Below the pieces are notes generated by a model that worked only from the letters and a program-made list of their open reading frames with translations, was not told the DNA's origin and searched no databases. Of a stretch of 64,000 nucleotides of DNA, positions 471-36,149 are shown one piece after another. The position numbers and the translations under genes were made by a program. The DNA is taken from positions 32,001 to 96,000 of the IMG/VR virus record IMGVR_UViG_3300032038_000012; one strand, 5' to 3'. Source of the stretch: a virus (taxonomy: Duplodnaviria > Caudoviricetes). Position 1 is the first letter of the stretch, and the number at the start of each line of letters is the position of its first letter.

Positions 471-1655
471 ATGGCTAATAAATTATGTCAAAAATGTGGA
501 AAAATGCTTGATGAAGATACTCAATTTTATACTTATAAAGATGGTACTAAAACAGAAATGTGTAAAAAATGTCTTACTATGCACATTGACAATTTTGACG
601 AAAGTACTTACTTATGGTTGTTAGAAAAAATGGATGTACCTTATATTCCTGAAGAATGGAACGTATTAAGAGAAAGAGCTTATGCAAAAAATCCAAACTT
701 AAATGGAATGTCTGTATTTGGTAAATACTTATCTAAAATGAAATTAAAACAATATAAACAATATGGATGGGCAGATACAGAGAAGTTAAATGCTCTTAAT
801 GATGAAAGAAGAGCAGTACAAAAAGAAGAAAGAGAAAAATTTGAAGAAGAAATTAAAAAGCAATTTGAAGCAGGAGAAATTGGAGAAGCAGAATATAAAA
901 CTATGATAAGTGCGGAAACGCAGAATAAAGATTATATGTCGCGTCCAGTAGCTCCACCAGAGTTTCCACAAGATAAATATTTTAGTGAAAATAGTGAAAT
1001 AGTTCAAGAGCAAATGGATAGCTTAATTTCCGAATTAACACAAGAAGATAAAAAAGTATTAGCTATGAAATGGGGAGCTTTATACAGACCTGAAGAATGG
1101 ATTGAACTAGAAAAAGATTATAATAATATGATGAATTCATTCGATATTCAAGATGCTGATACAATTAATACTTTAATATTAATTTGTAAAACGAACCTTA
1201 AAATGAACCAAGCATTAGATGCAGGAGATATTGAAGGTTATCAAAAATTATCAAAAGTATCTGAATCTTTAAGAAAATCTGCTAAGTTTACAGCGGCGCA
1301 AAACAAAGAACAAAAAAATGATTATGTAGATTGTGTTGGTGAGTTGGTAACAATGTGTGAAAAAGATGGATTTATTCCTAGGTTTGAAACAGATATACCA
1401 CAAGACAAAGTAGATTTAACTTTAAAAGATATGGAGAATTATTTATATAAATTAGTTACTCAAGATTTAGGGTTTGGACAACAAATAGAAGACGCATTAA
1501 AGAAAATTCAAATTCAAAAAGAAATGAATGAAAATGTTGAAGATATATTAGAGGATGATGATCCTACTACTCTAATAGACCAAGACTATGAGGAATTTTA
1601 CAATAGCGTTAATGAGCAAAAAGAACAAGATAAAACACTTGGAGATGAAGAATAA
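471..1655 (+). CDS. Putative terminase small subunit with N-terminal Zn finger
   Basis: AAGGAGG RBS; CQKC/CKKC motifs; TAATG overlap with TerL; function inferred from position. Confidence 0.55.
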   Translation: MANKLCQKCGKMLDEDTQFYTYKDGTKTEMCKKCLTMHIDNFDESTYLWLLEKMDVPYIPEEWNVLRERAYAKNPNLNGMSVFGKYLSKMKLKQYKQYGWADTEKLNALNDERRAVQKEEREKFEEEIKKQFEAGEIGEAEYKTMISAETQNKDYMSRPVAPPEFPQDKYFSENSEIVQEQMDSLISELTQEDKKVLAMKWGALYRPEEWIELEKDYNNMMNSFDIQDADTINTLILICKTNLKMNQALDAGDIEGYQKLSKVSESLRKSAKFTAAQNKEQKNDYVDCVGELVTMCEKDGFIPRFETDIPQDKVDLTLKDMENYLYKLVTQDLGFGQQIEDALKKIQIQKEMNENVEDILEDDDPTTLIDQDYEEFYNSVNEQKEQDKTLGDEE

Positions 1656-3391
1656 TGGCATTAGCAGATTTAATGGAATTATCCTTAAATTCTAATACTA
1701 AAAAAGTAGGATTATCAGAAGAAAGAATAAAAGCACAAAAAGAACTTTTAAGAAAATATATAGCGTATTGGCGCGAATACCCTGATATGTTTGTAGACTT
1801 TTTATGCGGTAGTAACCCAGAAAATTTCCACCTATTCTTTTATCAAAGAATGTTTTTAAGAGCGGTAATGCGTCATAGATATGCCTATGCTACTTTCCCT
1901 CGTGCTTATTCTAAATCATTTTTATCAGTATTGGTATTAATGTTAAGGTGTGTTCTTTATCCTGGTTCACATTTATTCGTTACAACAGGTGGAAAAGAAC
2001 AAGCTGCGGGAATCGCTAGAGAGAAAGCAGAAGAAATCTGTAAATTAATTCCAGGAATGAGAAATGAAATTGACTGGTCAAGAGGTGCAACAAAAGCATC
2101 TAAAAATATGGTTGAATATATATTTAAAAATGGTAGTAAATTAGATATTATGGCCGCACAACAAAGTTCTCGTGGTAAACGTGCTACTGGGGGTCTAATG
2201 GAGGAATGTATCCTTATTGACCAAACATTATTAAACGAAGTTATAATTCCTACCATGAACGTAGACCGTCGTCTTTCGGATGGATCGAGACAAGAAGATG
2301 AAGTTATTAACAAAAGTCAAATTTATGTAACAACAGCTGGTTGGAAAAATTCATTTGCTTATGAAAAGTTAATACAAATCTTAATTCAACAAATTACAGA
2401 ACCTGGTCAAGCAATAGTCCTTGGAGGAACATGGCGAGTTCCTGTTATGGAAAAATTATTAAGAAAATCATTTATTGAAGAATTAAAACTAGATGGAACA
2501 TATAATGATGCCTCATTTGCGCGTGAATACGAATCTGAATGGAGTGGAGATGCGGAAAACGCTTTCTTCTCTGCAGAACGTTTTGATAAACATAGAGTTT
2601 TATTACAACCTGAATATGAATTTAGTGGAAGAAGTAGTAAAAGTGCATATTATATACTTGGTATAGACGTTGGTCGTAAGGGATGTACTACCGAAGTTTG
2701 CGTATTTAAGGTAACGCCGCAAGCACAAGGAACTTCCTTGAAGACTCTTGTTAATTTATATACTTGGGATGAAGAACATTTTGAAGCTCAAGCAATAAAT
2801 ATAAAAAGATTATATTATAAATATAAATGCCGTACTGCGGTTATCGATGCCAACGGTTTAGGTATAGGTCTTGTAGACTTCATGGTAAAAGATCAAATAG
2901 ACCCAGAAACAGGAGAATTATTACCAAACTTTGGTGTTGAAAATGATGATGAAGGCTTTTATAAAAAATTTAAAACTGCTGATACTGAACCTGATGCTAT
3001 GTATTTAATAAAAGCTAATGCGCCAATAAATACAGAAGCTCACACTTATGTTCAAACTCAATTATCTAGTGGAAAAATAAAATTCTTAATAGATGAAAAC
3101 CAAGCAAAAGTAAAATTAATGAGTACAAAGTTAGGACAAAATATGGATAATGATAAAAGAGCAGAATACTTAAAACCTTTTACTTTAACAACTATTTTAA
3201 GAGAGCAAATGTTAAATTTAGTTGAAGAAAATGAAGGTGTTAATATTATTTTAAAACAAGCATCAAGAAGTATTAAGAAGGATAAATTCTCTGCTTTTGA
3301 ATATGGTTTATACTATATCAAGCAGGATGAAGATAGAAAGAAAAAAAGGAAAAAAAGAAACATTGCAGATATGATGTTCTTCGGACACTAA
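1655..3391 (+). CDS. terL: Terminase large subunit
   Basis: Walker A-like PRAYSKS, Walker B-like RGKRATGGLMEE, F-REY-SEW, RNase H-fold GIDVG, IDANGLG, KDKFSA. Confidence 0.9.
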   Translation: MALADLMELSLNSNTKKVGLSEERIKAQKELLRKYIAYWREYPDMFVDFLCGSNPENFHLFFYQRMFLRAVMRHRYAYATFPRAYSKSFLSVLVLMLRCVLYPGSHLFVTTGGKEQAAGIAREKAEEICKLIPGMRNEIDWSRGATKASKNMVEYIFKNGSKLDIMAAQQSSRGKRATGGLMEECILIDQTLLNEVIIPTMNVDRRLSDGSRQEDEVINKSQIYVTTAGWKNSFAYEKLIQILIQQITEPGQAIVLGGTWRVPVMEKLLRKSFIEELKLDGTYNDASFAREYESEWSGDAENAFFSAERFDKHRVLLQPEYEFSGRSSKSAYYILGIDVGRKGCTTEVCVFKVTPQAQGTSLKTLVNLYTWDEEHFEAQAINIKRLYYKYKCRTAVIDANGLGIGLVDFMVKDQIDPETGELLPNFGVENDDEGFYKKFKTADTEPDAMYLIKANAPINTEAHTYVQTQLSSGKIKFLIDENQAKVKLMSTKLGQNMDNDKRAEYLKPFTLTTILREQMLNLVEENEGVNIILKQASRSIKKDKFSAFEYGLYYIKQDEDRKKKRKKRNIADMMFFGH

Positions 3392-3405
3392 AGTTGCTTC
3401 TTATT

Positions 3406-3452
3406 GGGCAACTTTAGCTTATCCAACCATGAAGAATTTAATATTATATTAG
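3406..3452 (+). promoter_or_regulatory. Bipartite late-promoter-like motif, copy 1
   Basis: GGGCAAC...TTTAATATTATATTAG with the same 46-nt spacing as other copies; overlaps perfect inverted repeat CTAAAGTTGC/GCAACTTTAG (3388-3417). Confidence 0.55.
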
Positions 3453-3881: not shown

Positions 3882-3886
3882 TAAAC

Positions 3887-3915
3887 TTGACAAGATTCAA
3901 TATTTATGATATACT
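3887..3915 (+). promoter_or_regulatory. SigA/sigma70-type promoter with extended -10, upstream of portal
   Basis: TTGACA-17 nt-TATACT with TG at -15/-14. Confidence 0.8.
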
Positions 3916-3950
3916 ATAAAAGAAAAAGGAAGAAAGGTAAGGTGTCGATT

Positions 3951-5561
3951 TTGATAAATAGAAAAGAAGAAATTAAGAAAAAAGGTTTCTCTATCGCTCT
4001 TGCGAGTGACACCAGAGCAACTCAAAGTCCTTTTGAAAACGTTGACTTTTCAAAAATTAAAGTTGGCGCAAAAACTTTAGACGATGCAATTTATACCTTA
4101 GGAGATCTAAAGAGAATAGATAAAACATTAGCAGATAAAAAAGAAATATTAAGAGCTATGCACACTTGTGATTATGCTAAATTAAGAGATGTATCAAATT
4201 TCTTTTATAAAACAAGTGGTATATATTCAAGACTTTGTCGTTATATGGCATACTTATACAGATACGATTGGATGGTTACCCCATATATAAATGCGGAAGA
4301 TGCAAAAACAGAAGATAAAGTATTGGATAAATTTTATGATGTATTATTATATCTTGATAATTTTGAAGTAAAAAAATTCTTTGGAGAAGTTGCTTTAAAG
4401 GTTATTAGATATGGATGTTATTATGGATATCTAATTCCTGGAGTAAAAAGAATGAATGTCCAAGAGCTACCTGCTAACTATTGTCGTTCTAGATTTATGG
4501 TTAATAATCGTCCAGCAATAGAATTTAATATGAAGTTTTTTGATGATTATTTTAGAGATACAACTCAAAAAATTAAAATGTTAAATTTATTCCCAAAAGA
4601 ATTTAAAAAAGGTTACATTATGTATAAAGAAGGTAAATTACCACCTCAATTCGCAGGAGATACAAGTGGTTGGTATTTACTTGATCCAGAATTTGCTTTT
4701 AAATTCAATATTAATGGGGAAGATTTTCCAGCCTTTATTTCTGTAATTCCAGCAATTATAGATTTAGATGAGGCAAAAGAATTAGACCGTAAAAAAATGG
4801 CTCAAGAATTATTAAAAATTATAATTCAAAAGATGCCATTAGATAAAAATGGCGACCTAGTGTTTGACGTTGATGAAGCCGCACAATTACATAATAATGC
4901 AGTTAATATGTTAAGTAAGGCTATTGGTGTAGATGTATTAACTACATTTGCAGATGTTGATGTTGAAGACATGGATAGCGATAGGTCTAGTGCGTCAAGA
5001 GACGATTTAGAGAGAGTTGAAAGAACTGTTTATAATGAAGCAGGTGTATCTCAAATGCAGTTTAATACTGATGGAAATATTGCTCTTGAAAAATCTATAT
5101 TAAATGATGAAGCATCTTTATATAATTTAATTACACAATTTGAGCAATTCTTAAATGTTATAATTGATAAATTTAACAAACAACCTAAGAAATTTTATTA
5201 CAGATGTCAAATATTAACAACAACTATTTATAATTATAAAGAAATGGCTAAATTATATAAAGAACAAATGCAAATAGGTTTCAGTAAAATGTTACCTCAA
5301 ATTGCATTAGGACAATCTCAAAGTTCTATCTTAGCAAATGCTTATTGGGAAAATGATGTCTTAGATTTAATTAACGTATTTATCCCACCATTAATGTCTA
5401 GTACAATGAATGCGGAAGCTCTTGCTATGACAGGAAATAAGGAGGCTAAAAAGGCTATAGGCGGAGAAGGAGAAAATCCTGAAGGCGGTAGACCTACTAA
5501 AGAGTCTCAAGGAGAGCCTGTTTCGGATAAAACTATCCAAAATAAAGAAAGTCAGAATTAG
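3951..5561 (+). CDS. Portal protein (probable TTG start at 3951)
   Basis: Size and position between TerL and protease/capsid; listed ATG at 3906 lies inside the promoter; AAGGTAAGGTG RBS precedes TTG 3951. Confidence 0.75.
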   Translation: MINRKEEIKKKGFSIALASDTRATQSPFENVDFSKIKVGAKTLDDAIYTLGDLKRIDKTLADKKEILRAMHTCDYAKLRDVSNFFYKTSGIYSRLCRYMAYLYRYDWMVTPYINAEDAKTEDKVLDKFYDVLLYLDNFEVKKFFGEVALKVIRYGCYYGYLIPGVKRMNVQELPANYCRSRFMVNNRPAIEFNMKFFDDYFRDTTQKIKMLNLFPKEFKKGYIMYKEGKLPPQFAGDTSGWYLLDPEFAFKFNINGEDFPAFISVIPAIIDLDEAKELDRKKMAQELLKIIIQKMPLDKNGDLVFDVDEAAQLHNNAVNMLSKAIGVDVLTTFADVDVEDMDSDRSSASRDDLERVERTVYNEAGVSQMQFNTDGNIALEKSILNDEASLYNLITQFEQFLNVIIDKFNKQPKKFYYRCQILTTTIYNYKEMAKLYKEQMQIGFSKMLPQIALGQSQSSILANAYWENDVLDLINVFIPPLMSSTMNAEALAMTGNKEAKKAIGGEGENPEGGRPTKESQGEPVSDKTIQNKESQN

Positions 5562-5649: not shown

Positions 5650-7092
5650 ATGATGCATCAATCAATTGCGACAATTGATTCTCCTGAGTTTATTAATTTA
5701 CAACCGCTAGAAATTAATCCGCTAATGAGTAGCTGTGAAATCAAGGTATTATATCTTGGTCAAAACAGAAATCATAGTTATATAACCAAAGACGTAGCTA
5801 CTGAGATGGCGAAGACTCTAAGAGGAGCTCCAATTGTTGGATACTACAAAGAAGAGAAAGAAGATTTTGCAGACCACGGTGAAAAAATCATCTTCGATGA
5901 TGAAGGTGTCAAATTTGAATGCATGACAAAACCTTATGGATTTGTCGCACCAGACGCAAAAGTTTGGTTCCAAAAATTTGAAGATACTGATGAGTTTGGT
6001 AACATAGTAACTAGAGAGTATTTAATGACTACTGGTTATTTATGGACAGGTCAATTTGAAGAAGTAAAATCTGTCATTGATAAAGGTAAACCTCAATCAA
6101 TGGAACTTGATGAAGAAACTTTAAATGGACATTGGTCAACTGATAGCAAATCAGGCATGGATTTTTTCATTATAAATGATGCGATATTTTCGAAATTATG
6201 TATTTTAGGTGACGATGTAGAACCTTGCTTCGAGGGCTCAAGCATTACCGCACCAGAAGTAAGTACTTCATTCACAAAAATAGATGATAATTTTAAGAAA
6301 ACATTGTACACTATGATGCAAGATCTAAAATTTGCATTAGAAGGAGGACAAAAGATGATTATAGATGAAGCTGAAACAAAAGTAACAGAACCTGAAGTTG
6401 TTGAAACTGAAGCTGAAGCTACTGCTGAAGAAACATCTACTGAAACTGAAATCGCTGAAGAAACTGAAGTTGTAACTGAAGAAGAATCTACTGTTGAAAC
6501 TGAAGAAAGTTTAGAAGATAAGGACACAGAAGATCAATCTGTTTTAGCAGAAAATGATAATTCTATAGAAGATCAATCTAGTCAAGAAAACTTTACTAAA
6601 GCAGATGACAAAGATGAAGACGACGAAGAAGAAGAATCTAAAGACGCAGATGCTGAAGATGAAGATTCTGAATCTGAGGATGATGAAGACGAAAAAGATA
6701 AGAAAAAATCTTATGCTTTATTAGAGTCTGAATTAGCAGAAACTAAAGCAGCTTACACAGATCTTGAACAAAAATATCAAGTTCTTGTTGAGTTTAAAAA
6801 ACAAATCGATGATGAAAAGAAAGATGCTTTAATCAATAGTTTCTATATGTTGTCTGACGAAGATAAGGCAGATGTTATCGAGAATAAATCAAATTATTCA
6901 TTAGATGAAATCGAATCTAAACTTTCTGTTATTTGCGTAAGAAAGAAAGTAAATTTTGATTTAGAGGACACTTCTAAAGAAGAAGAAGAAGTAGACAAAG
7001 ACGTTATGACTTACACAGTAAATGATAACGAAGGTAGTTCTACACCAGCGTGGATCGCTGCACTAAAGAATACTAGAGATAGTAGAAAATAA
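5650..7092 (+). CDS. Putative prohead protease/scaffold fusion
   Basis: Globular N-half (NRNHSYI, SMEL, LCILG..VEPCFEGS) then very acidic E/D-rich and coiled-coil C-half; lies between portal and capsid. Confidence 0.65.
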   Translation: MMHQSIATIDSPEFINLQPLEINPLMSSCEIKVLYLGQNRNHSYITKDVATEMAKTLRGAPIVGYYKEEKEDFADHGEKIIFDDEGVKFECMTKPYGFVAPDAKVWFQKFEDTDEFGNIVTREYLMTTGYLWTGQFEEVKSVIDKGKPQSMELDEETLNGHWSTDSKSGMDFFIINDAIFSKLCILGDDVEPCFEGSSITAPEVSTSFTKIDDNFKKTLYTMMQDLKFALEGGQKMIIDEAETKVTEPEVVETEAEATAEETSTETEIAEETEVVTEEESTVETEESLEDKDTEDQSVLAENDNSIEDQSSQENFTKADDKDEDDEEEESKDADAEDEDSESEDDEDEKDKKKSYALLESELAETKAAYTDLEQKYQVLVEFKKQIDDEKKDALINSFYMLSDEDKADVIENKSNYSLDEIESKLSVICVRKKVNFDLEDTSKEEEEVDKDVMTYTVNDNEGSSTPAWIAALKNTRDSRK

Positions 7093-7110: not shown

Positions 7111-7605
7111 ATGGCAAAAATTGAAAGAATTGGTTACGGACAAGTTGAACCAAATCATTTATCAGCTCAAAGAACTGCACAAATCTATGCTCAATTACCA
7201 TGTGAAGATAAAATTGAAGTATTAGAAAATGGTCAATTCGTAAAATATGACTATGCTAATAAAGAAGTTAACTTAACTGGTAAAGGTGAATGGATGTTAG
7301 TTTTCAATGAAATCAAATTATATGATGACAGAAAACAAATGTACAGAGACTTCGCAATGAAAAAAGAAGAATGCGTAAATGGTGAAATCGTACCAAGAGT
7401 ATTTAAAACTAATATAGGAGATATTTATACCACTAACATGGTTGATAGCACAAAAGAATATGAAGAAGGAGCTTTATTAAAAGTTAATGATGAAGGAATC
7501 TTAACTACAGGTGGAAGCTTAGATGACGACATGTGTTGGGAAGTTGCTATGGTTTATACTTTAGCAGATGGACAACCAGCTATCAAAATCATGAGGGTTA
7601 AATAA
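7111..7605 (+). CDS. Putative head decoration/cement protein
   Basis: Small gene directly before capsid gene; strong RBS; biased codon use. Confidence 0.5.
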   Translation: MAKIERIGYGQVEPNHLSAQRTAQIYAQLPCEDKIEVLENGQFVKYDYANKEVNLTGKGEWMLVFNEIKLYDDRKQMYRDFAMKKEECVNGEIVPRVFKTNIGDIYTTNMVDSTKEYEEGALLKVNDEGILTTGGSLDDDMCWEVAMVYTLADGQPAIKIMRVK

Positions 7606-7624: not shown

Positions 7625-8656
7625 ATGGCATTAAATAAAAGTGAATTAGTAAAATTAGCTAAAACAGTTGCTAGCGCAAATCCTACTTCTCAAGTTGCAT
7701 ATTCATTTGGAGAAGAAAAATTCAGTTATTCAGATTTAAATGAAACTTTAAGAACTGAATTAAGAGAATTAGCTGGTACATATAGCTTATATAGAGAAAA
7801 TAAAAACACAATCTTCAGTATAATTGAAGAAACAATCGATGATGTATTACCAAGAAAAGTTATGGAACAATACGCATCATTCGCTGAAATCAAAACTTAT
7901 GCTCAAGGTGACAAACCTGTTTTCACTCAAAGAATTACTGCAAGTGCTAAAAGAAGAGCTAAAAGATTTGTTACTAAAGTTGGTTTAGCAGGTATTTATG
8001 AAGTATTCAAATTAGATGGAAAAACATTAGAAGTACCTACTGAAGCATTCGGTGGAGCAGCTCAAATCGGATTTGAAGAATTCTTAGACGGTAGAGTTGA
8101 TTTCGCAGACGTATTAGACGTTATTATGGAAGGTTTAGATGAAGCTATCTACATCGAAATCGAAAAAGCATTAAAAGCAACAATTGATAGTTTACAAGAC
8201 ACTAACAAAGCATCTGAATCAGGATTCAATGAAACTGCAATGGATAACTTAATTGCTATCGCAGACTCATATGGAAAATCTACAATTTATTGTACTTATG
8301 AATTTGCTGCAACTATGGTTCCTGCAGAAGGATGGGTTTCTGATGATATGAGAAACCAAAAATGGAATAATGGATATTTAGCAAACTACAAAGGACATAA
8401 CGTAATCGTATTAGACCAATCATTCGTTGATGAAACTAACACTAAAAAAGTTATTGACCCATCTTATGCTTATATCATTCCAGTAGGAGCAGATAAACCT
8501 GTTAAAATTGCTTTTGAAGGAAATACTATTGTTGATGAATATGTTAACAAAGATCGTTCAAGAGAAGTTCAAGTTTATAAAAAATTAGGTGTTGCAACTT
8601 TAGTTACTAACAACATTTGTGTTTATGTTAATGAAGCTTTAACACCATCAATCTAA
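7625..8656 (+). CDS. Major capsid protein
   Basis: 343 aa, position, strongly biased codons (TTC/ATC/AAC), followed by terminator-like hairpin. Confidence 0.75.
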   Translation: MALNKSELVKLAKTVASANPTSQVAYSFGEEKFSYSDLNETLRTELRELAGTYSLYRENKNTIFSIIEETIDDVLPRKVMEQYASFAEIKTYAQGDKPVFTQRITASAKRRAKRFVTKVGLAGIYEVFKLDGKTLEVPTEAFGGAAQIGFEEFLDGRVDFADVLDVIMEGLDEAIYIEIEKALKATIDSLQDTNKASESGFNETAMDNLIAIADSYGKSTIYCTYEFAATMVPAEGWVSDDMRNQKWNNGYLANYKGHNVIVLDQSFVDETNTKKVIDPSYAYIIPVGADKPVKIAFEGNTIVDEYVNKDRSREVQVYKKLGVATLVTNNICVYVNEALTPSI

Positions 8657-9365: not shown

Positions 9366-9926
9366 ATGGAAAGAACTACTACACCTTTTTCTATGATCTA
9401 CGATAGCTTTCTATCAAAAATAACTGATGATATGTATATGGAATTAAATGAATTAGATACATTCAGAATGTTACAAGAGCTATTAATAACAGCTACACAC
9501 AAATTTGAATTTCCACGTTTTGATATTACTGATTTTGAGGAAAGTTATGTAGAGGATGAAGGTACATATTGTGGAGTTGAGAGCGATGATTGCTGCGCTA
9601 AAGCACTTATTTATGGCGGCGGTTGCTTTAATAGTGTATTAACTCCAGAAGAAATAAATATCTTATCAACTTATATGATAGTAGAATGGTTAGGACAACA
9701 ATTAGCTAGTGTCGAAAACACTAGAATGAAATATAGTGGTTCTGATTTTAAATTTACTTCACAAGCTAATCACATGAGTAAGTTATTAAACTTAAAAAGT
9801 GATTATGAAAGAGAAGGATTTCATCTACAAAGATTATATAAGAGAAGATTAAAAGACGAAAATGGCATTATGCGTTCTACATTTGGATCTATTATGGAGG
9901 TTAGTACTCGTGATTTTATCGAATAA
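9366..9926 (+). CDS. Putative head-tail adaptor
   Basis: GGAGGTG RBS; position; helical protein with DFKFTSQANH motif. Confidence 0.5.
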   Translation: MERTTTPFSMIYDSFLSKITDDMYMELNELDTFRMLQELLITATHKFEFPRFDITDFEESYVEDEGTYCGVESDDCCAKALIYGGGCFNSVLTPEEINILSTYMIVEWLGQQLASVENTRMKYSGSDFKFTSQANHMSKLLNLKSDYEREGFHLQRLYKRRLKDENGIMRSTFGSIMEVSTRDFIE

Positions 9927-10230: not shown

Positions 10231-10233
10231 GAT

Positions 10234-23546: not shown

Positions 23547-23570
23547 GAAGAGATAAAAGGAGATGTGATT

Positions 23571-26500
23571 ATGAACAGTTATGAAAATAATATTTTAGAA
23601 GCCGTCGAGATAATTACAAATCAAAAAATCGATGAAGCTGATTTTAATAAAACTGTTCAAGCCACAATTATTAAGATGATTGATGCGGCATCCGCACATT
23701 ATTTGGTTAAATACCAAGATAGTAGATTTGATGCTTTTGCCGTAAACAAAACAAAACAATATCAAGATGGACAAAATGTTTATGTATTATTCCCAGGAAA
23801 TGATACTAAACAAGATAAAATGATTATAGGTCCAGTTGAAAAGAACGCAGAGTTTGTTACTACTATTGTAGACGCAGAAAGATATGAAATAGTTGGAACA
23901 AATTGCGCAAATAGTTTAAATGATACTTTTGAACTATGTTCTTATACTCCTAATGGAGATATAAAAGTTTTATATGATAGAGAAAATAGAATTAATTTAA
24001 TTCATCTTAATATAAGAGATGTCCAAGAATATATACAACAAAGTAGTATATTATGTTGTGGAGCTGATTTTAGAACTCAGTTATCTGCAGAACAACAAAT
24101 AAAAGGAAACTATGGAATTGTATTTGAATTGGCTTTTAAAGATGGCTTGATGAAAAATTATATGGTGGATGTAAATCAAATGAGTGGAAACCCATATAAA
24201 TTAATTAAGAATACAACTCAAAAAAGTTATTTTGAAATTGGAGAAGGGTTTCAATATGTAAATAAAATTTATATATTTGAGAAAGACTTCCCATATACAG
24301 ATGATAATAAAGAAAATGATATATTCGTAAAGAATATTTTTATAGGAGGAGCAATAGGTTTAACATCTGATGAATTATTGTCTACAAGAATAACATTAGA
24401 AACACCAGATGGAAGTTACTTCTCACAAACCGAAGATGTAAATGAAAAAAGAATAGAAGCAAAAATAAAAGTAAGTGGGAAGGTTCAAGAAGATATTAGC
24501 AATGTAAAATTTTATTGGTTTAAAGAAAATAGTAGTGTTGATTTAACCAGCCCTAAATATAATCATGCGGGAGGTGCCGGTTGGGAATATTTAACCGAAG
24601 GTACAAGCACTTATACTGTACATAAAACAGATATTGTATCTGAAGAACAAATGTATAAATGTGTAGCAGATATAGGAGGAATTTTATATTCACAGGTAGC
24701 TATTTTTAAAAACTATGATACAGAAATAAAAATTTCAATTCAATCTAGTAATGGAACAGTTTTCTATTATGATATGGGAGAAATTACTTTAACTTGTAAT
24801 GTTGAAGGAGGAGATTCCGCGAATGAATATAGTTATCATTGGACTTTTGAAGATAGCGGAGCAGGAACCACTTTTTTAGAAAACGACACTAATATACAAA
24901 ATGTATATATTAAGGACATATCTCTTTCGAGAAAATATATTTGTTCTATATATTTAGGAGATGTTTATATTGGAACATCATCTGTAATGTTATATAATCA
25001 GACAAACACTCAAGATATTCAATTTCAATTAAAGGTTTTAAATAATGATATTTTATATCAATATGATATAGATGGAAATAAACCTGATATAGAAATAAAA
25101 CCTTTAAAATGTATGTTGCAGGATGCAGATGGAAATGAGATAGATGAAAGTATATTTTCAAAATGTAAAATTATTTGGACGTGTCCGCAAGAAAAATCTA
25201 TGATGAAAGATTTCAGTGCAAGTTTAAATAATTTAACTTACACTATTGAAGATAGATATGATGTAGAAAAAACAAATAATAAAATTGGAGTTCAAGTTCA
25301 ATTAGATACTCAATATATTTACAAAGAGTTTTCTATTAACTTCATTAAAAAGGGAGAAATAGGAACAAACGGAACTAAATATACAGGGAAAATTGTAGTG
25401 AATGCAGAAAATGATTTACAATATCCAGTTTATTCAGGGTCTTCTCGAGTAACTTTTTGGAATTGTAATTTATATTCTAGTTCTAAATGGTTTAAAATTC
25501 AATTATGGAGAGATAGTAAAAAAATATATGAAGGGTATTCTGATGGAACTTCAACTGAAAATAAGCCAGTTCAATTAAAATGGAGTGTATTAAAAAATAA
25601 ATATCCTAATGAAATTAGTGATTATAGTAAAATTAACATAGATGAATATAATAATTATACTGCAACAGGATATGTTCCTGAAGATAGAATTGCCGCAAGT
25701 GTAATTCAATGTGAAATTAGTTATGATGGGACAAAAATATATTGCACTAAATCTTTATTAGAAGGTGAATCTTGGCCTGGGAATAAAGTTCTTTTAGTTG
25801 AAGGAACAGGATTTACAAGTGTGCAATATAATTCTCAAGGAAGAAATCCTAAATATCAAAATGATATTTTTGAATTACAAGTTTTAAATCAAAATGGTTT
25901 AGATATAACTCAAAGAGATTTAACTTTTAATTGGTCTGTTTATGGACAAGTTTGGGATGGATTAACTTGGAAAGAAACTCCTATTGTAAATATTATAGAA
26001 GATAATGCTTTACCAGCTTGGAAAAAACGTATTCAACCAAACTCAGAGTGGAACGGAGAATGTGTTACCGCAGGAGTGAAAGTTGATGTTTATCAAGCTA
26101 CTAACTATATAGCGACATTAAAAATTCCAATTCATGGATATTTAAATAGAAGTATGAATCAGGCTATTGAAGGGTGGAATGGAAATTCAATTCAATTAAA
26201 ACAGTCTGGTGGATATCTATATACACCTCAAATTGGAGCAGGTAAAAAAGAATCTGATGAAAGTTTTACTGGAATGATAATGGGTAAAGCTAGAGAAAAA
26301 AACGTAGAAAAAACAGGGTTGCTTGGATATAGTCATGGTGAACAAAGTTTATTTTTAGATGCAGAAAGCGGAGGAGCCATCTTTGGAAAAGGTTCTGGAG
26401 ATGGGCAAGTAACAATTGATCCTAAAATTAATAAGAGTTTATTATTTAGTAAAAGTTATTGGAAAAATTATGATACTAAAGGATTTCCGCTTAATTATGA

Positions 26501-27563
26501 AGAATCTAATAAAAATCATAATGGTTTACTAATAGATTTAGCAACGCCAAAAATAGAATATGGAAATCAACGTTTTATTGTAGATAGTCAAGGAAATTTA
26601 ACTTGTGGAGAACAAATTACTGGTAATGGTATTTTAATGCAAGTTCAAGGTTTCGTAGAAAATCAATTAGCAGGATATTTTTTAACAGAAACTGGACATA
26701 CTACATACCCAGAGACAGGACCTGAAGCGGGTGGAGGTGAAGTAAGCTGGCCAACGGCTCATATAGATGGTTTTAAATATGGACGAATTCCAGCTTTAGT
26801 AAATTTGTATATTCCTGAGAATTTTCATATTACTCAAGCTCTTTGCAAAGTAATACAAGGTGGAATGGTAAATGAAAGTCCTGAGCAGACTCCTCAATAT
26901 AAAGGAGGAGAAGCTTTTTGGGGATGGACGACATTAAGTGATGGTTGGAAACCTGAAATGAATCCACCATCTTCACAATATAAATATCATATAGATGGAC
27001 ATTATACAAAATATGCATGGTCTGATTGAGGTCAAAACTACCCAGAAACATATAGCATTGATTATTGTTGCGGTAGTCTTAGTGATGATTTTGCTTTATA
27101 TTATTTCCCTGGAGAAGTGGTTCATTATGAAGTAGATGCATATGCCACATCTGTAATGGGTATGCAAGATGCATATTTTAATGTTTGGGTAGAAGAAGAT
27201 TCCCCATTAGTTAAACAATTAGGTTTAGTTCAAACAGGTTTTCCTTCTGTTAGAAATTATAGAATCAACCAAGAAGACTTAATAGTTCAACAACATGAGA
27301 GAATTATTGATTTTACAGAGGATGCTAAACAATATTTTCATACTGGAACTAATACGATAGGATTAATGCCATCATCTGTACCTGAAAGCGTAGATATTAG
27401 ACCATATATTCGAGATAGAAGATATTATCCTGATTTTGGTTATTCTATGACGCATTATCATTCTACTATTTGTGCAGAACCTTATATAACAGAAGCAAAC
27501 ACGAAAAATGGATATGTGTCTTTATCAGTAATAATCTATGGACATTATAATCCAACTCAATAA
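23571..27563 (+). CDS. Large tail (tip/baseplate) protein A, ~1330 aa, TGA=Trp at 27027
   Basis: Listed ORFs 23565..27029 and 27117..27563 are one frame separated only by TGA; C-terminus (GYVSLSVIIYGHYNP) matches that of paralogue B. Confidence 0.75.
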
Positions 27564-27588
27564 AAGGAGATAAAAGGAGAGATAACAA

Positions 27589-30500
27589 ATGAATAACTAT
27601 GAAGATAATATATTAGAAGCAATAGAAACTATTGTAGATAATTCTATTGCTAAATCTAATTATGATAGAACAATTCAAGCTACAATTATTAAAATAGTAG
27701 ATAAGTCTTTGGGGCAATATAATGTTAAGTATCAAGATAGTTATTTTGATGCTTTTTCAATAGATACAACAATAGAATATGTTGAAGGAACTAATGTTTA
27801 TATATTAGTGCCTAACGGTGACATGTCTAAAGATAAAACTATTTTAGGTGCGGTTGATGGATATAAAATTCAAGGTGTTACCGCAATTACAGATGCGGAT
27901 GCATCGGACCCAGTTGGATACAACTGTGTTAATAGTGAAGTAAGTTTTGAATTATGTTCTTATACAGAAGAACAAAATATCGTATTGTACGATAAAGATA
28001 GCGAAATTAATTTAATAAATTTAGATAGTGAGGCTTTAAAGAATTTTTTACAAAATAGTTCTCAATTAGTTGCGGGAGCTTCGTTTAGAACAAATTTACC
28101 TGGAGAACAAAGAATAAAAGGTAATTATGGTATTATTTTTGAATTAGGTTTTAAAGCTCAGGTTTCAGATGAAATTATGTTAAAAAAATTTATTATAGAC
28201 ATAGATAGAATGAGTGGTAATCCATATGTTTTAAATAATGCAACTCCGCAACTTGGATATTTTGAAATTGATGGAGAAAATTTTGAATATATAAATAATG
28301 TTACAATATTTGAAAAAGATTTCCCTTATCAAGCGACAGATAAAGATAATGATATTTTTATTTCTGAGCTTCAAATTTTTGGATCTAATAGAATAAGTGA
28401 AGAAGAATATAATGTTGCACGATTAGTAATAAATACGCCTCAAGGTAATTATTTTACAGAACAAGACAGTCTTCAAACAACTAAGCAACTTGTAGCAAAA
28501 ATAAAAACCAATGGTGCAGAAATGGATTTATCTAAATCTAAAGTGGAATATTATTGGTTTAAAGAAAATGATGATATTACAATAGAAAGTCAAAAATATA
28601 ATTTTTATGGAGGCGAAGGCTGGGAATGCTTAAATGATTTTACACTAATTGATGGTAATCCTAATTTAGTAACATGGAGTTCAGCATCTAATATATGGAA
28701 TATTGCAAAAGCAAGTGTTAGAAGTGAACAAGTTCAATATAAATGTATTGTTGTTTATAATAATATTATTTTACAAAGATTAGTTACAATAAAGAATCAG
28801 GGGGCTGCATTTTCTATAAAAATAGTTTCAGATTTAGGAGCTGATTTTATAGATGGACTAGGATATCCTACATTAACTTGTATGATAAATAATTCAGAAG
28901 AACCTTTAACGGGATATAGATACGTATGGTCTAGAACAGATAATAATGGACTATATATGAAGTTAGATGAAACCACAGAAGAAAATTTAGCATATCAAAA
29001 TGCTTATAATAATTATGAGAATTTATTAACTCAAATTCAAACTGAACAAGTCTTCCCAAATGCGGTTGCCGCACAGTTAGAAGAGTATAAAAATGAATTT
29101 GAGGCTTTTGAAAAAATAACAAGAGTTGATAAAAATAAAATATATAAAATAAATACAAGTGAAATTACTAATTATATGCACTATAAATGTTCTGTATATT
29201 ATAATAATGAATATGTTGGAACTGAATCTATTATTTTATATAACACAAATTCAACTAATCAAGATTATTTCATTCAATTAGTTAATGGCACTCAAATTTT
29301 TAAATATGATGAAAATGGTATATCACCTTGTGATGAAACTAAAGATAATCCACAAGAAATATTACCACTTCAATTTAATATTATAAATAAAGAAGGATTA
29401 GATGTTACTAATGAGATTTTAGAAAAGAGTCAAATAGAATGGGAAGTCCCAACTGAAAATACTTTAATTACAGTTTCAGGGGCGCTAACCGCAAGACAAT
29501 TGCTTTTTACTATTGACAATTTTTATGATAATACAAAAAATAATAATGAAATTAAATTAACAGTAACATATAAGAAACAAAAATTGGTTGCTTATACTAA
29601 TTTAAGTTTTATAAAAGAAGGAGATATTGGAACAAATGGAACAGATTACTATTGTAAAATTGTTCCTAATACATCTCAAAAGGTTGATTATCCAATGATA
29701 GTTAATGGGACTTTAAATTACACTCCAGCTCAACAAGGAAAATGGTTTAAAGCTCAAATTTGGAGAGGTGGTAAATTAATATTTGAAGGAGCTGAATCTG
29801 GAGCTTCTATTGAGAGTGATAGAGCTGTTATTAGATGGGGAGTTCAAAAAAATAAGTATAATGCTCAAGTATCAGACCCAAGTTCAATAATAGTAACTAA
29901 TAATATCTTTAGTACAACGGGGTATTATATTGAAGATGGTTCTGGCGCAAATTGCCCTGCTAATATTGTTCAATGTAAAGTCACTTATAAAGGAATAGAT
30001 TATTTTGTAACTATTCCAGTTATTACAGTTTCTTATAATGATCCTTATCAAATATATTTAGAGCCAAGAACAGGATTTAATTTTGTAACATATAGTTCTG
30101 ATGGTAGATATCCTAAGTATAATGATAGTAAGCCTTTTGAAATTCAAATATTGCAAACGATTAATGGAGTAAAAGAAAATATTAGTTTACTTCGTTCAAA
30201 TCAATATGGAGTAAAATTTGAATGGTATATAAGAGGTCAAGTTTATGATACTAAAACGGGCTTATGAGTAGACAAAACCATGTTTACTATTGATGAAACT
30301 GAAGTTTTAGAACAAAATAAAATTAAGTTAATCCCTATATCAGAATATTCTGGGGAATGTGTTTCAACTGCATTAGAGTGTATTTGTAAAAAGAAATCTG
30401 ATAATACCACAGTAATTGGAAAAATTCATATTCCAATACATTGTATGTTAAATAGATATGCAAATGCGGCAATTAATGACTGGGATGGAAATAGTGTAAC

Positions 30501-31755
30501 AATTAATGATACAGATGGTTATATATTAACTCCGCAAGTTGGGGCCGGAACAAAAGATGAAAACAATCGTTTTACCGGAATGTTAATGGGTTCTGTTAAA
30601 GATAATTCTAATGGAGTTACTAAAACTGGATTGTTAGGTTACGACACTGGACAACAAAGTTTATTTTTAGATGCTGAATCAGGTGGTGCGATATTCGGAA
30701 AAGGAAATGGTGGTCAAATTATAATTGATCCGCAAAGTAATAAGAGTTATTTATTTAGTCATGACTATTGAAAAAGTTATAATGAAAAAGGTTTTCCAAT
30801 TAATTATGAAGACTCTAATAAAGATAATAAGGGAATGTTGATAGATTTAGCAACACCGCAAATTGTATTTGGAAGTGGTAATTTTAAAGTTGATAAAGAT
30901 GGTAATGTTACTTGTGGGGATATGTTAACCTCAAGAGGAATTTTAACAATGTTGAGATATGAAAATGAGGGGTTTGTAGGATGGGATTGAAACCTTTTTT
31001 CTACAGATTATATATCAAAAACAGCAAGCTCTACATCAGATGGTTATACACAAACAATAACATTAGCTTGTCCAAATTATTTTGAATATGAACCTCATTT
31101 ATTGTTATTCTCTTGTTTTATTCCAGAAGGATTTTCTTTATATAAAGCTGTTTGTACTTTAGAACAATATTCTTATAATGATCCTTATAGTATAGATTCT
31201 TGGTATGGAGAAAGATCAGGAGACATTCCAAGTTGGATAACTAGGACAACAACTGAACAGGAAACTAGTTTAACTGTACCTGGCTCAGCAACAGATGCAC
31301 CGGCAGTATGGTTTGTCCCATATGAAGCATATACAAGAGTCGTAGGTAGAGGACATATGAGTGGGGGATATAATAGATATAGTGTTGATACTTCTCAATG
31401 TATAAGACTAGGAGTGGCAGATTCAGGTTTCCCTGATGCGGTTACAACACCTCAGACTACAGTATTATCTAAAACAATAGATTTTTCTGGAGCAATAACA
31501 AATAATTATTTAGTTCCTGGACAAGTAAATTTATTGGCTGTTATGCCAGGAAACATATTGGCTAAAGTTCCATTGACTTGGAATTCTGTAAGTTTTACGG
31601 AGACAGAATATGCTCATACCACAACTTATAATACATGGAGAGCCTCTCAAGGGACAGCAAATTTAAAAGCTTGATGTAGAAGACGAACTGGATATGTAAA
31701 AGCTCAAATTGTTTTGTATGGATATTATGATCCATCATTAGTTAATAATAGTTAG
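27589..31755 (+). CDS. Large tail (tip/baseplate) protein B, ~1388 aa, paralogue of A; TGA=Trp at 30265, 30769, 30988, 31672
   Basis: Single frame to TAG 31753; SHDY*KSYNEKGFPINYEDSNK aligns with A SKSYWKNYDTKGFPLNYEESNK. Confidence 0.8.
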
Positions 31756-31772
31756 TGCAAAGGAGGTTTATT

Positions 31773-32948
31773 ATGGCACAATTATCAAGTGAAGAAAGAA
31801 TTGCTAGAGTTGAACAAGCACCTGTTGAAGTGCAAACAATGGTAGCAAAAGCTTTTTTAAGAGATGATATTGACGATGAAGATGTTCAATATCTATTTAA
31901 TACAGACACTATTGAACAATTAAATGATAGTGAAAGTAATCAAGAAGTTGAGCATGTAAACGAAGAAGAGCCAGAAGGGATTGGTGCTGCGGGTTTTACA
32001 ATGAGAACTTCAAAGCCTAGTAATAATAAAAACTTTATTACAACAGGTTCAGGTGGATGGAATACATGTATTAAAGGATATCCAATGGATCCAAACGCAA
32101 ATGTTTTAGCAAATTGCGTTGGATACGCAAGTGGGAGATTTAATGAAATAATTAATATTGCTAGAGATCAAGGTGGTTGTACATATAAAACATTAAATTG
32201 TAATGCAGTAGGTTTCAAAGAAAGAGCGGAAGCAGCAGGACTTCAAACAGGTAGTACTCCAAGACGTGGAGCTATTATGTGTTGGGGAAATGGTGGAGCT
32301 GGACATGTTGCAATTGTTGAAAGAGTAGATAGCAATAATCAAGTTTATACTTCTGAATCTGGATATGGTTCAACAGCATTTTGGAATCAAATAAGAACAA
32401 ATAATAATGGTAGATGGGGATGTTCAAGTAATTATTACTTTAGATGTTTCATTTATTTACCAAGTGATGTTCAACAAAAAATTGATGGCGGACAACCCGC
32501 CCCAACACCTACTCCAGGACCAAGTAGCAAATACAATATAGGAGATAAAGTAGTTATTAATGGGCCTTTATATACTAGTTCAAATGCGGCAAGTCCTGCA
32601 GGAAGAACTGGAGATAAGGTTACTAATATAACTAGAAAAAATCCTGGAAGTGCGCATCCTTATAATACAACAGGAGATTTAGGATGGATGGATGAAAGTT
32701 CTATTAAGCCATATGCAGAACCAACTCCTCAACCTGCACCACAGCCTAAAGGACTTCAGGTTGGAGATACAGTTGTTATTGTAGGAACTGGTAATGGAAG
32801 TTCATATGGTGATAGTAACACAGCATATGGAATTGGATGGACTAGACAAATCTTAAGAATCTGGAGTGGAAGATCATTCCCATATCAAGTTGGAAACGGC
32901 TCTGGTACAACTGGATTCTATAGAGCAGAAGCTTTACAAAAAAAATAA
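31773..32948 (+). CDS. CHAP-domain peptidoglycan hydrolase with acidic N-terminus and two SH3-like C-terminal domains
   Basis: ANCVGYA.GRF (Cys), GHVAIVE (His), SESGY; Pro-rich linkers; AAGGAGG RBS before ATG 31773. Confidence 0.85.
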   Translation: MAQLSSEERIARVEQAPVEVQTMVAKAFLRDDIDDEDVQYLFNTDTIEQLNDSESNQEVEHVNEEEPEGIGAAGFTMRTSKPSNNKNFITTGSGGWNTCIKGYPMDPNANVLANCVGYASGRFNEIINIARDQGGCTYKTLNCNAVGFKERAEAAGLQTGSTPRRGAIMCWGNGGAGHVAIVERVDSNNQVYTSESGYGSTAFWNQIRTNNNGRWGCSSNYYFRCFIYLPSDVQQKIDGGQPAPTPTPGPSSKYNIGDKVVINGPLYTSSNAASPAGRTGDKVTNITRKNPGSAHPYNTTGDLGWMDESSIKPYAEPTPQPAPQPKGLQVGDTVVIVGTGNGSSYGDSNTAYGIGWTRQILRIWSGRSFPYQVGNGSGTTGFYRAEALQKK

Positions 32949-32960
32949 TAGGAGGTTAAT

Positions 32961-33410
32961 ATGTTAGAAGCAATTATGGAAACTTTAAGAATTATGGGTT
33001 GGCTAGGAATTGTATTAGGAATTCTTGCAACAGTTAATTTAGTTTGTGGAACAGTTTATAATATCAATGACGGTCAAACATTTTCTTGGAAAAAGTTTTT
33101 CAAAGGAATTTTAAAAGTTGTAATCTTTTATATGAGTGCTGTATTTGTAAGTGTTGCATTTACAATGCTACCTTATATTAATACAATGATTACAGACGCT
33201 TTTGGAGTAGTATTACTTTCAAGCGAATTATTAAACACTTTATCAAGTGTGGCAGTTTTAGGAATTGTAGTAGCTTCAGTAGTTACTCAAGCTAAAAAGG
33301 CTTTTGAAAATATTAGTAAATTATCTACTATGTCTTCAGATGTAGAAGTAATTACTTGGGATGTAGTAGAACCAGAAGAAGATGAAATGGAAGAAGAAGC
33401 CTCTGTATAA
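32961..33410 (+). CDS. Holin
   Basis: About three hydrophobic segments, FSWKKF..G..K motif, charged C-terminus, adjacent to lysin. Confidence 0.7.
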   Translation: MLEAIMETLRIMGWLGIVLGILATVNLVCGTVYNINDGQTFSWKKFFKGILKVVIFYMSAVFVSVAFTMLPYINTMITDAFGVVLLSSELLNTLSSVAVLGIVVASVVTQAKKAFENISKLSTMSSDVEVITWDVVEPEEDEMEEEASV

Positions 33411-33427
33411 GAGGTTTCTTCATTTTT
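33395..33427 (+). terminator. Possible terminator
   Basis: GAAGCCTCT-GTATA-AGAGGTTTC followed by T-rich tract. Confidence 0.45.
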
Positions 33428-33441
33428 AAGGAGGGACAATA

Positions 33442-33942
33442 ATGAGTAGTATAAAAAAGATTAGAACTACTGAAGGAGATTTATCTATTGATTATAATAG
33501 TTTAGATAATCTTCCTACCATCCCTAGTAAAGTTAGTGATTTAACAAATGATAGTGGATTTATAACAAAAAGTGTTAGTAGTTTAGATAATTATTATACA
33601 AAAACTGAGGTTGATGAAAAAGAGGTTGAAGTTACATTAAATGGGGCTTCAGTTAGTTCACCTAGTTTTTACGCACCTACAACAGCGGGAACATCAGGAC
33701 AAGTCTTAAAATCTAGCGGAAATGGCGCACCTGTTTGGGGGAGTGTAGATGTAGACGCGAAAGAAGATAAATCAAATAAAGTTACTTCAATGACTAGTTC
33801 AAGCACAGACCTTCAATATCCTAGTGCAAAATGTGTATACGACTGGATGTCAGGAATAAAGATTGTAGCTTTAACTCAAACTCAATATGATGCTTTAACA
33901 ACTAAAGATGCTAATACTTTATATTTTATAACAGGAGCATAA
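33442..33942 (+). CDS. Small fibre-type structural protein
   Basis: IPSKVSDLTNDSGFIT, GTSGQVLKS.G.G.P.W, YPSAK and LTQTQYDAL..KD.NTLYFI motifs typical of phage fibre/adaptor proteins. Confidence 0.55.
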   Translation: MSSIKKIRTTEGDLSIDYNSLDNLPTIPSKVSDLTNDSGFITKSVSSLDNYYTKTEVDEKEVEVTLNGASVSSPSFYAPTTAGTSGQVLKSSGNGAPVWGSVDVDAKEDKSNKVTSMTSSSTDLQYPSAKCVYDWMSGIKIVALTQTQYDALTTKDANTLYFITGA

Positions 33943-33955
33943 GGGGGTTTTAAAC

Positions 33956-34978
33956 ATGGCTCGTAGTGAGATACACGTAGGAGACGATTTATCTGGTAAA
34001 ACTTTATTCTTTAACTTCCAAGAGACGGGTGATTTTCAAGGTAACTCAAATGGAGATGCTTTTACTACTTCTGGCGGTTATGTTTTAAATTATTATCATG
34101 CAGGGGCAACAGGAGTAGAAGAATTAATAGAAATAACTGGACCAAATGACTTTTATGTTGCTGTTTTTTCAAACTGGAGATGGAGGATTGATCCAAATCT
34201 TAGTGAATATACTCTTCCTGAAGATGCAGGAACAGTAACCGCGATAGATACATCAATAGGAATTTTAGATAAAGTAAAATGGGGAAACCCTTTTACTTCA
34301 AAAGTTTATTTAGGTAATAATGAAATTTCTCAAATTTATTTAGGGACTACTGCAATTCATAAAGCTAATTTAGGTGAGAATGAATGTTCTATTGCCTCAT
34401 TCATAGTAAGAAGTAGTGAATTTATTTTTGAAAGAGGACAGACATGGAAAAACTGGATTGATCAAGCTAAATATTGGACTTCTTCAGATAATTTTAGTTA
34501 CAATGAAAATGGAGTATATTATGGTGAAGCTAGTTTATATCAAAAACCTGGATGGGGAAGTGTATCCTATACAGATTTAATTACTGAAGGCGGAGAATAT
34601 GGTGCAGCATCAGCATGTTTAAGTCCAGATACATTAATAAAAACAGATAAAGGACTAGTAGAGATTTCTACACTTTCAGTAGGAGATGAATTAACTGAAA
34701 AGAATATAGTAGAAAAAATAGTTGCTCATAATAGAGAGCAATATTATATTATTACACTTGAAAATGATGACACTATAAAAGCTTCGAATGACCACTTATT
34801 TATAAGCGGAAATGAAATAATAAGAACTGAACAACTTGAAAAAGGACAACTTTTAAATAAATTAAAAATAAAAAATATAGAATTGGTAAATGAACCAATG
34901 ACTATGTATGAAATAAAAACAAGCACAAATCAATATACATTATTCAATGATATAATTTGTGAATGTGAAAATATTTAA
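33956..34978 (+). CDS. Protein with C-terminal Hint (intein/Hedgehog-like) domain
   Basis: From 34616: [19 protein letters not shown] (block A), IKASNDHLF (block B), MYEIKT (block F); no terminal His-Asn. Confidence 0.75.
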
Positions 34979-34991
34979 GGAGGAAATTAAT

Positions 34992-36149
34992 ATGGCAGTT
35001 TTTGGAATAGATATTAGTGCACATAACGCAGGTTTAAATTTACAAGCTGCTAAAAATGAAGGTGTGCGTTTTGCAATTTTAAGAGCAGGATATACAGGTT
35101 ATGGAAATGGTATTAGCAAAGCAAAAGATACACAATTTGAAAACTTTTATTCACAATGTAAAAACTTAGGTATCCCAGTTGGTGCATATTGGTTTTCATG
35201 CGCAAATACTTATCAAAAAGGTGTAGATGAAGCAAACTGGATGTATGATAATTGTTTAAGAGGAAAATCATTTGAATATCCAATTTACTTAGATGTAGAA
35301 GAAGATGCTGGAGGTAGACATTATTTAAGCGGAGCAGGAAAAGACGCGGTTACCGCAGGTATCAAAGGATTTTGCGAGACTCTTGAAAAGAAAGGTTTTT
35401 ATGTGGGGGTTTATGCCAATAGTGATTGGTTTAATCGTTTAATTGATGCTAGTATTCCAAATAGATTTGACTGTTGGTTAGCAAACTGGAGCTCTCATAA
35501 TCCAGGTTCACCAGCACATGGAATATGGCAATTCGGTGGAGAAACTAATAGAGTAAGAAGCAATAGAGTTGCAGGTATGGTGATCGACCAAGATTATGCT
35601 TATAAAGATTATCCTAATATTATGAGAAGTGGTAACTTTAATGGATGCGGCGGAGGTGCTCCTACACCTGCCCCACAACCTCAACCAACCCCTTCTAAAT
35701 CTGTTGATGAGTTAGCAAGAGAAGTAATCGAAGGAAAATGGGGTAATGGAAACGACAGAAAAAATAGACTTCAAGCCGCAGGGTATAATTATAGTGAAGT
35801 CCAAGCAAAAGTAAACGAAATCTTAAATGGTGGAAATAAACCAGCACCAAAAAAATCTAATGAAGAAATAGCTAGAGAAGTTATAAATGGTCAATGGGGA
35901 AACGGTGAAGATAGAAGAAATAGATTAACTCAAGCTGGATATAATTATTCTGAAGTCCAAGCTATTGTAAATAAAATTTTAAATGGCGGTTCAAGTAAAC
36001 CATCTGCAGAGTATTATACAGTTAAAAGTGGAGATACTTTAAGTGGTATTGCCGCAAGATATGGAACAACAGTAAAACAATTAGTTGCTTGGAATAATAT
36101 TTCAAATCCTAACTTAATTTATCCAGGACAAAAATTTAGAGTAAGGTAG
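34992..36149 (+). CDS. Endolysin: GH25 muramidase + 2x CW_7 + LysM
   Basis: GIDIS, GAYWFS, YLDVE; two [24 protein letters not shown] repeats; [31 protein letters not shown]. Confidence 0.92.

Follow-up and report, generated by a model that had tools for sequence, protein, structure and literature searches.

Sparse and uneven use of UGA as a tryptophan codon in a bovine gut phage, in a pattern that its relatives do not share

Why would a phage that reads TGA as tryptophan place that codon in its distal-tail and fibre genes, and leave it out of a long run of head and tail genes and out of its lysis block? The question is raised by a 64,000-nucleotide stretch, hereafter the window, of the virus record IMGVR_UViG_3300032038_000012 (Duplodnaviria; Caudoviricetes). 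The record is a complete phage genome of 135,791 bp with direct terminal repeats and a GC content of ~30%, of which the window covers bases 32001-96000; the sequencing runs that contain the phage are bovine gut metagenomes from some fifteen studies. The late genes lie on the plus strand, from about -656 to 61756 in window coordinates, and the replication module follows on the minus strand. An initial annotation of the window had noticed the partition and proposed three explanations: a regulatory gate, inefficient UGA decoding that tunes down low-copy proteins, and a recent reassignment that had so far reached only fast-evolving, AT-rich genes. The partition proved to be strongly non-random in this genome and not conserved in its relatives. 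We consider it probable that TGA carries a cost and is kept at a low level specific to the lineage, the block pattern being contingent, with no built-in switch behind it.

The phage uses genetic code 4, in which UGA specifies Trp. When TGA is read as sense, same-frame fragments merge into long genes ending in TAA or TAG, and all 14 code-11 open reading frames (ORFs; ≥100 aa) that end in TGA continue in frame, for 12-746 codons. No gene of the genome ends in TGA, early genes included, compared with 14 of 95 in the code-11 relative G013 (IMGVR_UViG_3300045988_169876), a standard-code genome useful as an outgroup to the change of code. In alignments, TGA falls at conserved Trp columns that are TGG in relatives, the code-11 genomes G009 and G013 among them; examples are the TGA at codon 893 of gene 27589, a TGG in seven relatives (G013 included), and the TGA at codon 136 of gene 56451, a TGG in nine other genomes. 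Programmed read-through with two isoforms was rejected, as the genome has no TGA stops and up to five TGAs per gene. Two sense TGAs, at 52132-52135 and 52587-52590, overlap the start codon of the following gene as ATGA and GTGA; the idea that the TGAs at 52133 and 52588 are real stops was rejected because a close relative, G016, has TGG at both.

The decoder is encoded by the phage itself. The first 11 kb of the genome contain 24 tRNA genes and one tmRNA gene (L001:987-1411); a further tRNA-like gene at L001:693-761, AT-rich and with an anticodon loop of 8 nt (GAAA), may be spurious. The 96-nt tRNA(UCA) gene (L001:8971-9066 in genome coordinates, ~23 kb upstream of the window; Rfam tRNA, 61.6 bits) is paralogous to its neighbour, tRNA-Trp(CCA). 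Its acceptor stem has A1-U72, G2-C71, G3-C70, G4-C69 and G5-C68, with G73, which is the Bacillus-type tRNA-Trp identity set (PMC9976931), and its anticodon is UCA, not CCA. ARAGORN labelled it as a selenocysteine tRNA, a reading we rejected given the 7-bp acceptor stem, the paralogy to tRNA-Trp, and the alignment of TGA with TGG. The complete genome has no gene for a tryptophanyl-tRNA synthetase (TrpRS) or a release factor; tRNA(UCA) must therefore be charged by the host TrpRS, and host release factor 2 (RF2) would compete with it at each UGA.

The variable region of this tRNA holds an extra hairpin, a 5-bp stem closed by a 7-nt loop, CUCCAAA, which duplicates the anticodon loop found in tRNA-Trp(CCA); the minimum-energy fold is a cloverleaf plus this extra arm. 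A loose DNA pattern for the gene gave mostly chance matches, and a stricter one worked. Among 14 distinct sequences from related phages, 100% of the cells of the stem alignment pair, and three of the five pairs change on both sides. The loop is constant, including in the sequences found by BLAST; its constancy in those found by pattern is partly forced by the search pattern. It is plausible that the extra arm presents a CCA loop to the host TrpRS. Our literature search found no paper describing a two-armed tRNA(UCA), and the contigs G021-G025, which carry an identical or near-identical tRNA(UCA), gave no DNA match to TerL-portal. In four relatives (G002:106260-106995 [L085], G003:97435-98170 [L086/L088], G006:96560-97290, and G008:515-1250) the tRNA(UCA) gene is split by a ~600-nt insert, placed between anticodon bases 34 and 35, after U and ending in G, and encoding a 153-aa PD-(D/E)XK endonuclease (PF11645). 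The insert has the look of a group I intron that carries a homing endonuclease; in Rfam, the interrupted genes matched no group I intron model. One relative, G010, encodes both tRNA(UCA) and tRNA(CUA).

Trp codons were counted over a curated gene list with curated starts. The 17 genes of 471-23474 have 58 TGG and no TGA, the lysis block (31755-36149) has 28 TGG and no TGA, and gene 58109-61756 has 12 TGG and no TGA; the stretches 23565-31755 and 36277-58106 together have 29 TGA and 96 TGG, with the TGAs in 13 genes. The late genes as a whole contain 30 TGA among 230 Trp codons, and the replication module contains 6 TGA and 127 TGG. The initial annotation was thus correct that none of more than 50 Trp codons from 471 to 23474 is TGA, that the CHAP lysin, holin, GH25 lysin and 58109 genes use TGG throughout, and that TGA clusters in tail-tip and fibre genes. 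It had begun the first block with TerL at 471, which is a separate gene (471-1655); TerL is 1655-3391. The TGA-free run starts at 471 because the gene before it has one TGA. The features are as follows.

-656 to 456, plus strand, upstream gene with one sense TGA
471 to 1655, plus strand, gene at which the TGA-free run begins, separate from TerL
1655 to 3391, plus strand, TerL (PHROG 2)
3906 to 5561, plus strand, portal
5650 to 7092, plus strand, gene of the bulk virion set, in the TGA-free run
7111 to 7605, plus strand, gene of the bulk virion set, in the TGA-free run
7625 to 8656, plus strand, putative major capsid protein of the SPbeta YonB family, both Trp codons TGG
12590 to 13531, plus strand, virion protein of the bulk virion set, TGA-free
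15303 to 23474, plus strand, tape measure protein (TMP), 2723 aa, 24 TGG and no TGA
23565 to 27563, plus strand, distal tail protein (PHROG 3267 'tail protein'), one sense TGA at 27027-27029
27589 to 31755, plus strand, large distal tail protein, 1388 aa, sense TGAs at 30265, 30769, 30988 and 31672
31755 to 36149, plus strand, whole lysis block, 28 TGG and no TGA
31755 to 32948, plus strand, CHAP protein, lysis block
32961 to 33410, plus strand, holin-like protein with three transmembrane segments
33442 to 33942, plus strand, Phage_tail_C protein, lysis block
33956 to 34978, plus strand, Hint-domain protein, weak Hint/intein-type matches at its C terminus
34959 to 36149, plus strand, GH25-CW_7-LysM endolysin, lysis block
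36277 to 58106, plus strand, fibre/baseplate region, ~20 kb, 24 sense TGAs in 11 genes
58109 to 61756, plus strand, late gene, 1215 aa, 12 TGG and no TGA

The difference between blocks was significant by Fisher's test, both for the head-to-TMP run against the rest (p = 6e-6) and for all TGA-free blocks against the rest (p = 1.4e-8). Because the blocks had been picked after the data were seen, we added a shuffle of the order of the late Trp codons; the longest run of TGG comprises 82 of the 230 codons (p = 2.5e-5). Base composition was rejected as the cause, since third-position GC content (GC3) is 0.11-0.12 and the A-ending share of Lys, Glu and Gln codons is 0.86-0.91 in all blocks, TGA-free and TGA-bearing alike; the suggestion that TGA had reached the AT-rich genes was therefore wrong. 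Within genes, a C-terminal bias of TGA was not significant (Mann-Whitney p = 0.12-0.33). Three TGAs in code-4 ORFs that start at 7568, 23475 and 46548 are artefacts, as they precede the true start codons.

The TGA-bearing genes of the fibre region start at 36277, 36856, 38966, 41934, 43295, 48997, 51317, 52132, 54228, 55398, and 56451, and many genes interspersed among them have no TGA; domains found in the region are Phage_fiber_2, YadA-head repeat, CBM_5_12, and Gp10_C. In the lysis block, the CHAP protein may be a virion-associated lysin, and the name holin for its neighbour reflects three hydrophobic segments. The nearest named relative of the portal is that of phage phAss-1, at 38% identity. 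An AlphaFold model of the 7625-8656 protein was unusable (mean pLDDT, 46.7), and sequence searches of the PDB with the 7625 and 12590 proteins gave no match. A frameshift suspected at 9862-9926 was ruled out, as the orthologues are equal in length to the gene here.

A search with the portal in IMG/VR found 253 related loci, from which eleven long contigs were taken whole, and a tree was built from the concatenation of seven late proteins. The genome is nested within a well-supported ten-genome code-4 clade, with G013 and G009 outside, and the whole clade has the unusual tRNA-Trp(UCA). Its TGA share of Trp codons, 0.12, is the lowest of the clade; the other members range from 0.29 to 0.59. Genes that are TGA-free here are recoded elsewhere. 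TerL has TGA/TGG counts of 6/0, 6/0, 4/2, 4/1 and 4/1 in relatives, the two 6/0 cases being G007 and G008, at 92% protein identity, and homologues of gene 471 reach 6/2. Portal homologues carry TGA, the counts for TMP homologues are 23/6, 15/8 and 12/16, and homologues of gene 58109 have 7-11 TGA. In the lysis block, the holin-like homologue of G003 has 4 TGA and no TGG, and Hint homologues have counts of 6/4 and 7/2, the copies in G001, G007 and G008 being heavily recoded (6-7 TGA). This largely agrees with what the initial annotation had named as a refutation of its proposal, free use of TGA in capsid, TMP or lysin genes of relatives; there are two exceptions. The bulk virion set (5650, 7111, 7625, 8773 and 12590), to which the YonB-like capsid and a putative tube protein belong, has at most one TGA per genome across the ten recoded genomes, the capsid gene 7625 being near TGA-free over all ten, with a single TGA in the G003 ORF. 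The CHAP gene is TGG-only throughout the clade, with homologues at 0/8 in three relatives. Replication genes are TGA-poor in every genome. The conserved rule is an ordinary one, in which early and bulk virion genes avoid a poorly read codon.

The wider family includes TAG recoders as well. The IMG/VR contigs L379-L392 (37-198 kb) carry TMP homologues of near-equal length with 5-87 in-frame TAG; these homologues contain no TGA and no other in-frame stop, with the exception of L391. Best-segment identities of 47-54% had suggested that the TMP was imported from TAG-recoded phages, an idea we rejected because whole-length scores favour the relatives in the TGA clade.

The closest contigs show that individual TGAs turn over rapidly. 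G018 is 96% identical in DNA to this genome over window positions -839 to 8822, and G016 is 77-97% identical, in segments, over 43064 to 85124. Of the Trp codons shared with these two contigs, 19 of 174 differ between TGA and TGG, with changes in both directions, at 89-97% identity. Four sites that are TGG in this genome are TGA in G018, one in gene 471 (codon 201) and three in the upstream gene at -656 to 456 (codons 208, 226 and 322); the block partition is therefore absent from a 96%-identical relative. Much of the clade has TGA at three of these four sites, which points to TGA loss in this genome. G016 has TGG at 12 of the TGAs of this genome, among them both TGAs of gene 56451 and three of the four of gene 48997, and outgroup polarisation identified codon 136 of gene 56451 as a TGA gain here. 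In the fibre region, genes with TGA have diverged from G016 to the same extent as genes without it.

Several observations indicate that TGA is a costly codon. The TGA share of late Trp codons, 0.13, is far below the A-ending share of Lys, Glu and Gln codons, 0.86-0.91. When close genomes were compared, the flip rate of late-gene Trp codons, scaled by 2p(1-p), was about that of Lys, Glu and Gln third positions, and it was lower in early genes; the heavily recoded pair G001/G007 behaved in the same way. The equilibrium shares are far apart, being ~0.87 for A-ending Lys, Glu and Gln codons and, for late TGA, 0.54 in G001/G007 and 0.13 in this lineage. We conclude that TGA is selected against everywhere, to a degree that varies by lineage and gene class. 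The capsid, 7111 and 12590 genes have 97-100% A-ending codons (100% for Lys, Glu and Gln in the capsid gene), yet use only TGG. The base that follows also differs between sense TGA and TGG: over ten genomes, T and C are depleted and purines enriched after TGA (chi-square p = 1e-15), and T at +4 is depleted with an odds ratio of 0.58 (p = 1e-9). In E. coli, U after a stop codon is the strongest termination context, and the bias fits selection against strong termination contexts.

These results bear directly on the proposed regulatory gate, according to which UGA decoding has been withdrawn in this lineage from everything but the adsorption apparatus: the standard code suffices for heads, tail shafts and lysins, and tail tips and fibres are finished only once suppressor tRNA is abundant. 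The pattern in this genome is indeed far from random, 13 distal-tail and fibre genes need read-through for their full-length products, and the phage retains tRNA(UCA). However, relatives carry TGA in TerL, gene 471, the portal, TMP, the 58109 homologue, and the holin-like and Hint genes of the lysis block, and the closest contigs shift TGAs in and out of both compartments; a partition that is not conserved does not support a designed gate. Many fibre-region genes lack TGA altogether, and tRNA(UCA) sits in an array of 24 tRNAs with no sign of late-specific control. We regard a gate of this kind as very improbable. Were it true, full-length tips and fibres, and so infectious particles, would arise only where the two-armed tRNA-Trp(UCA) is expressed and charged, which would place a genetic-code checkpoint on infectivity and not on lysis.

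Two historical accounts would explain the low and clustered TGA use differently. An effective suppressor might have been gained or regained recently, with TGAs so far only where turnover is fastest; a path of this sort has been proposed by Borges et al. (10.1101/2021.08.26.457843). The TGA share is the lowest of the clade, G016 has still fewer TGAs, some TGAs are derived here (codon 136 of gene 56451 is one), and the extra-arm stem of tRNA(UCA) is the same as that of the distant G010 and one base off that of G004, while unlike that of the sister clade; the match to G010 could reflect transfer of the tRNA gene. Against this, the genome is nested among heavy TGA users with the same tRNA, none of its genes, early ones included, ends in TGA, the four sites in the -656 and 471 genes point to loss of TGA and not gain, and fibre genes with and without TGA are equally diverged from G016. 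An early or re-started recoding is accordingly unlikely. The third explanation of the initial annotation is half right: the reassignment itself is old, the odd tRNA(UCA) being clade-wide, but individual TGAs are young and turning over. Alternatively, the genome might be a recombination mosaic, in which fibre and tip modules were imported with their TGAs from heavier recoders and the head-to-TMP genes came from a TGA-poor line. The clustering of the TGAs agrees with this, as do the lack of homologues of most fibre genes in eleven more distant relatives and the 77-93% DNA identity of the fibre region to G016, against 97% for the replication module. Yet the search turned up no donor, homologues of gene 43295 reaching at best 32-47% identity and having TGG or Tyr at its TGA sites, and the head genes align with G018 in one unbroken 9.7-kb block. 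We judge a mosaic origin to be decidedly improbable.

The second explanation, that of an inefficient codon, came nearest to the data, although copy number by itself does not predict the lack of TGA in TerL, portal and TMP in this genome. In the reading that we favour, and hold to be probable, phage tRNA-Trp(UCA) decodes UGA, the host TrpRS charges it, and host RF2 competes, so that UGA would always be a worse Trp codon than UGG; its cost would arise from RF2 competition together with limited charging. TGG and TGA would interconvert rapidly by synonymous transition, with AT-biased mutation favouring TGA and selection opposing it. That selection would be strongest in the replication module, whose genes are read before the suppressor accumulates, and in the bulk virion proteins, and weak in other late genes. 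The resulting TGA share would be a set-point of the lineage, with TGA at ~0.13 of late Trp codons in this phage and those closest to it and at 0.3-0.6 in the rest of the clade. At a low set-point the few TGAs would fall unevenly, here in distal-tail and fibre genes, and their placement would be contingent on that set-point and on history; the TGA-free stretch from 471 to TMP and the TGA-free lysins would be states of this lineage and not a conserved design.

Some of the data sit poorly with this account. The run of 82 TGG codons is very unlikely under random scatter of TGAs, so more than independent drift has shaped this genome; blocks of linkage or recombination, or gene-wise selection specific to the lineage, are possible causes. 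Copy number does not account for the absence of TGA from TerL, portal and TMP, all of them low-copy. Finally, the -656 and 471 genes have four Trp sites that are TGG here and TGA in the 96%-identical contig, three of them TGA in much of the clade too, and such changes from TGA to TGG, which run against the mutation bias, hint at directional selection in this genome.

In several respects the genome resembles the 'Agate' phages, ~127 kb and TGA-recoded, that Borges et al. described from cattle and other animals (10.1101/2021.08.26.457843). The two have in common a genome of ~127-135 kb, a cattle or animal gut source, TGA read as Trp with a phage tRNA(UCA), homing endonucleases, and in-frame TGA in structural genes and not in the replication machinery; here, as expected of a recoded phage, TGA is concentrated in the late genes and scarce in those for replication. 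Both have close relatives with the standard code, and code usage that shifts over short distances; Borges et al. found standard-code relatives at >90% average nucleotide identity to recoded phages (10.1101/2021.08.26.457843). Two differences stand out. Lysis-cassette genes are preferentially recoded in the Agate phages (10.1101/2021.08.26.457843), whereas the lysis block here has 28 TGG and no TGA, contrary to what a lysis-timing model leads one to expect and as the initial annotation had rightly remarked for this genome; and only ~13% of the late Trp codons here are TGA. The genome fits a lightly recoded Agate-type phage in every feature compared but the recoding of the lysis genes, an assignment made by shared features and not by comparison with Agate sequences. 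The phAss-1 group is also similar, consisting of a human-gut siphophage of 136 kb with many tRNAs, suppressors included, and with recoded codons mainly in virion genes; there, however, TAG is read as Gln, and TerL, portal and TMP are among the recoded genes (PMC10607447).

As in the code 4 of Mycoplasma and Spiroplasma, the genome is AT-rich and a tRNA-Trp(UCA) reads UGA as Trp. Those bacteria lack RF2 and write most of their Trp codons as UGA. Here, in contrast, TGA is a minority codon and its decoder is supplied by the phage, and the host has a cell wall, as the CHAP and GH25-LysM lysins indicate, and presumably uses code 11. Throughout the clade, the genes of the most abundant virion proteins avoid TGA, which resembles the translational selection that steers highly expressed genes away from poorly read codons, with the difference that the disfavoured codon is a stop in the host, so that truncation is a penalty besides slowness.

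The genome must be annotated with translation table 4, even though just 13 genes of the window need it. With a lysis block, including an endolysin and a holin-like gene, that needs no suppression, the phage is a clear counter-example to the idea that recoding serves lysis timing. The clade to which it belongs forms a natural series in which to measure what a reassigned stop codon costs in fitness and to follow the spread or retreat of a code change.

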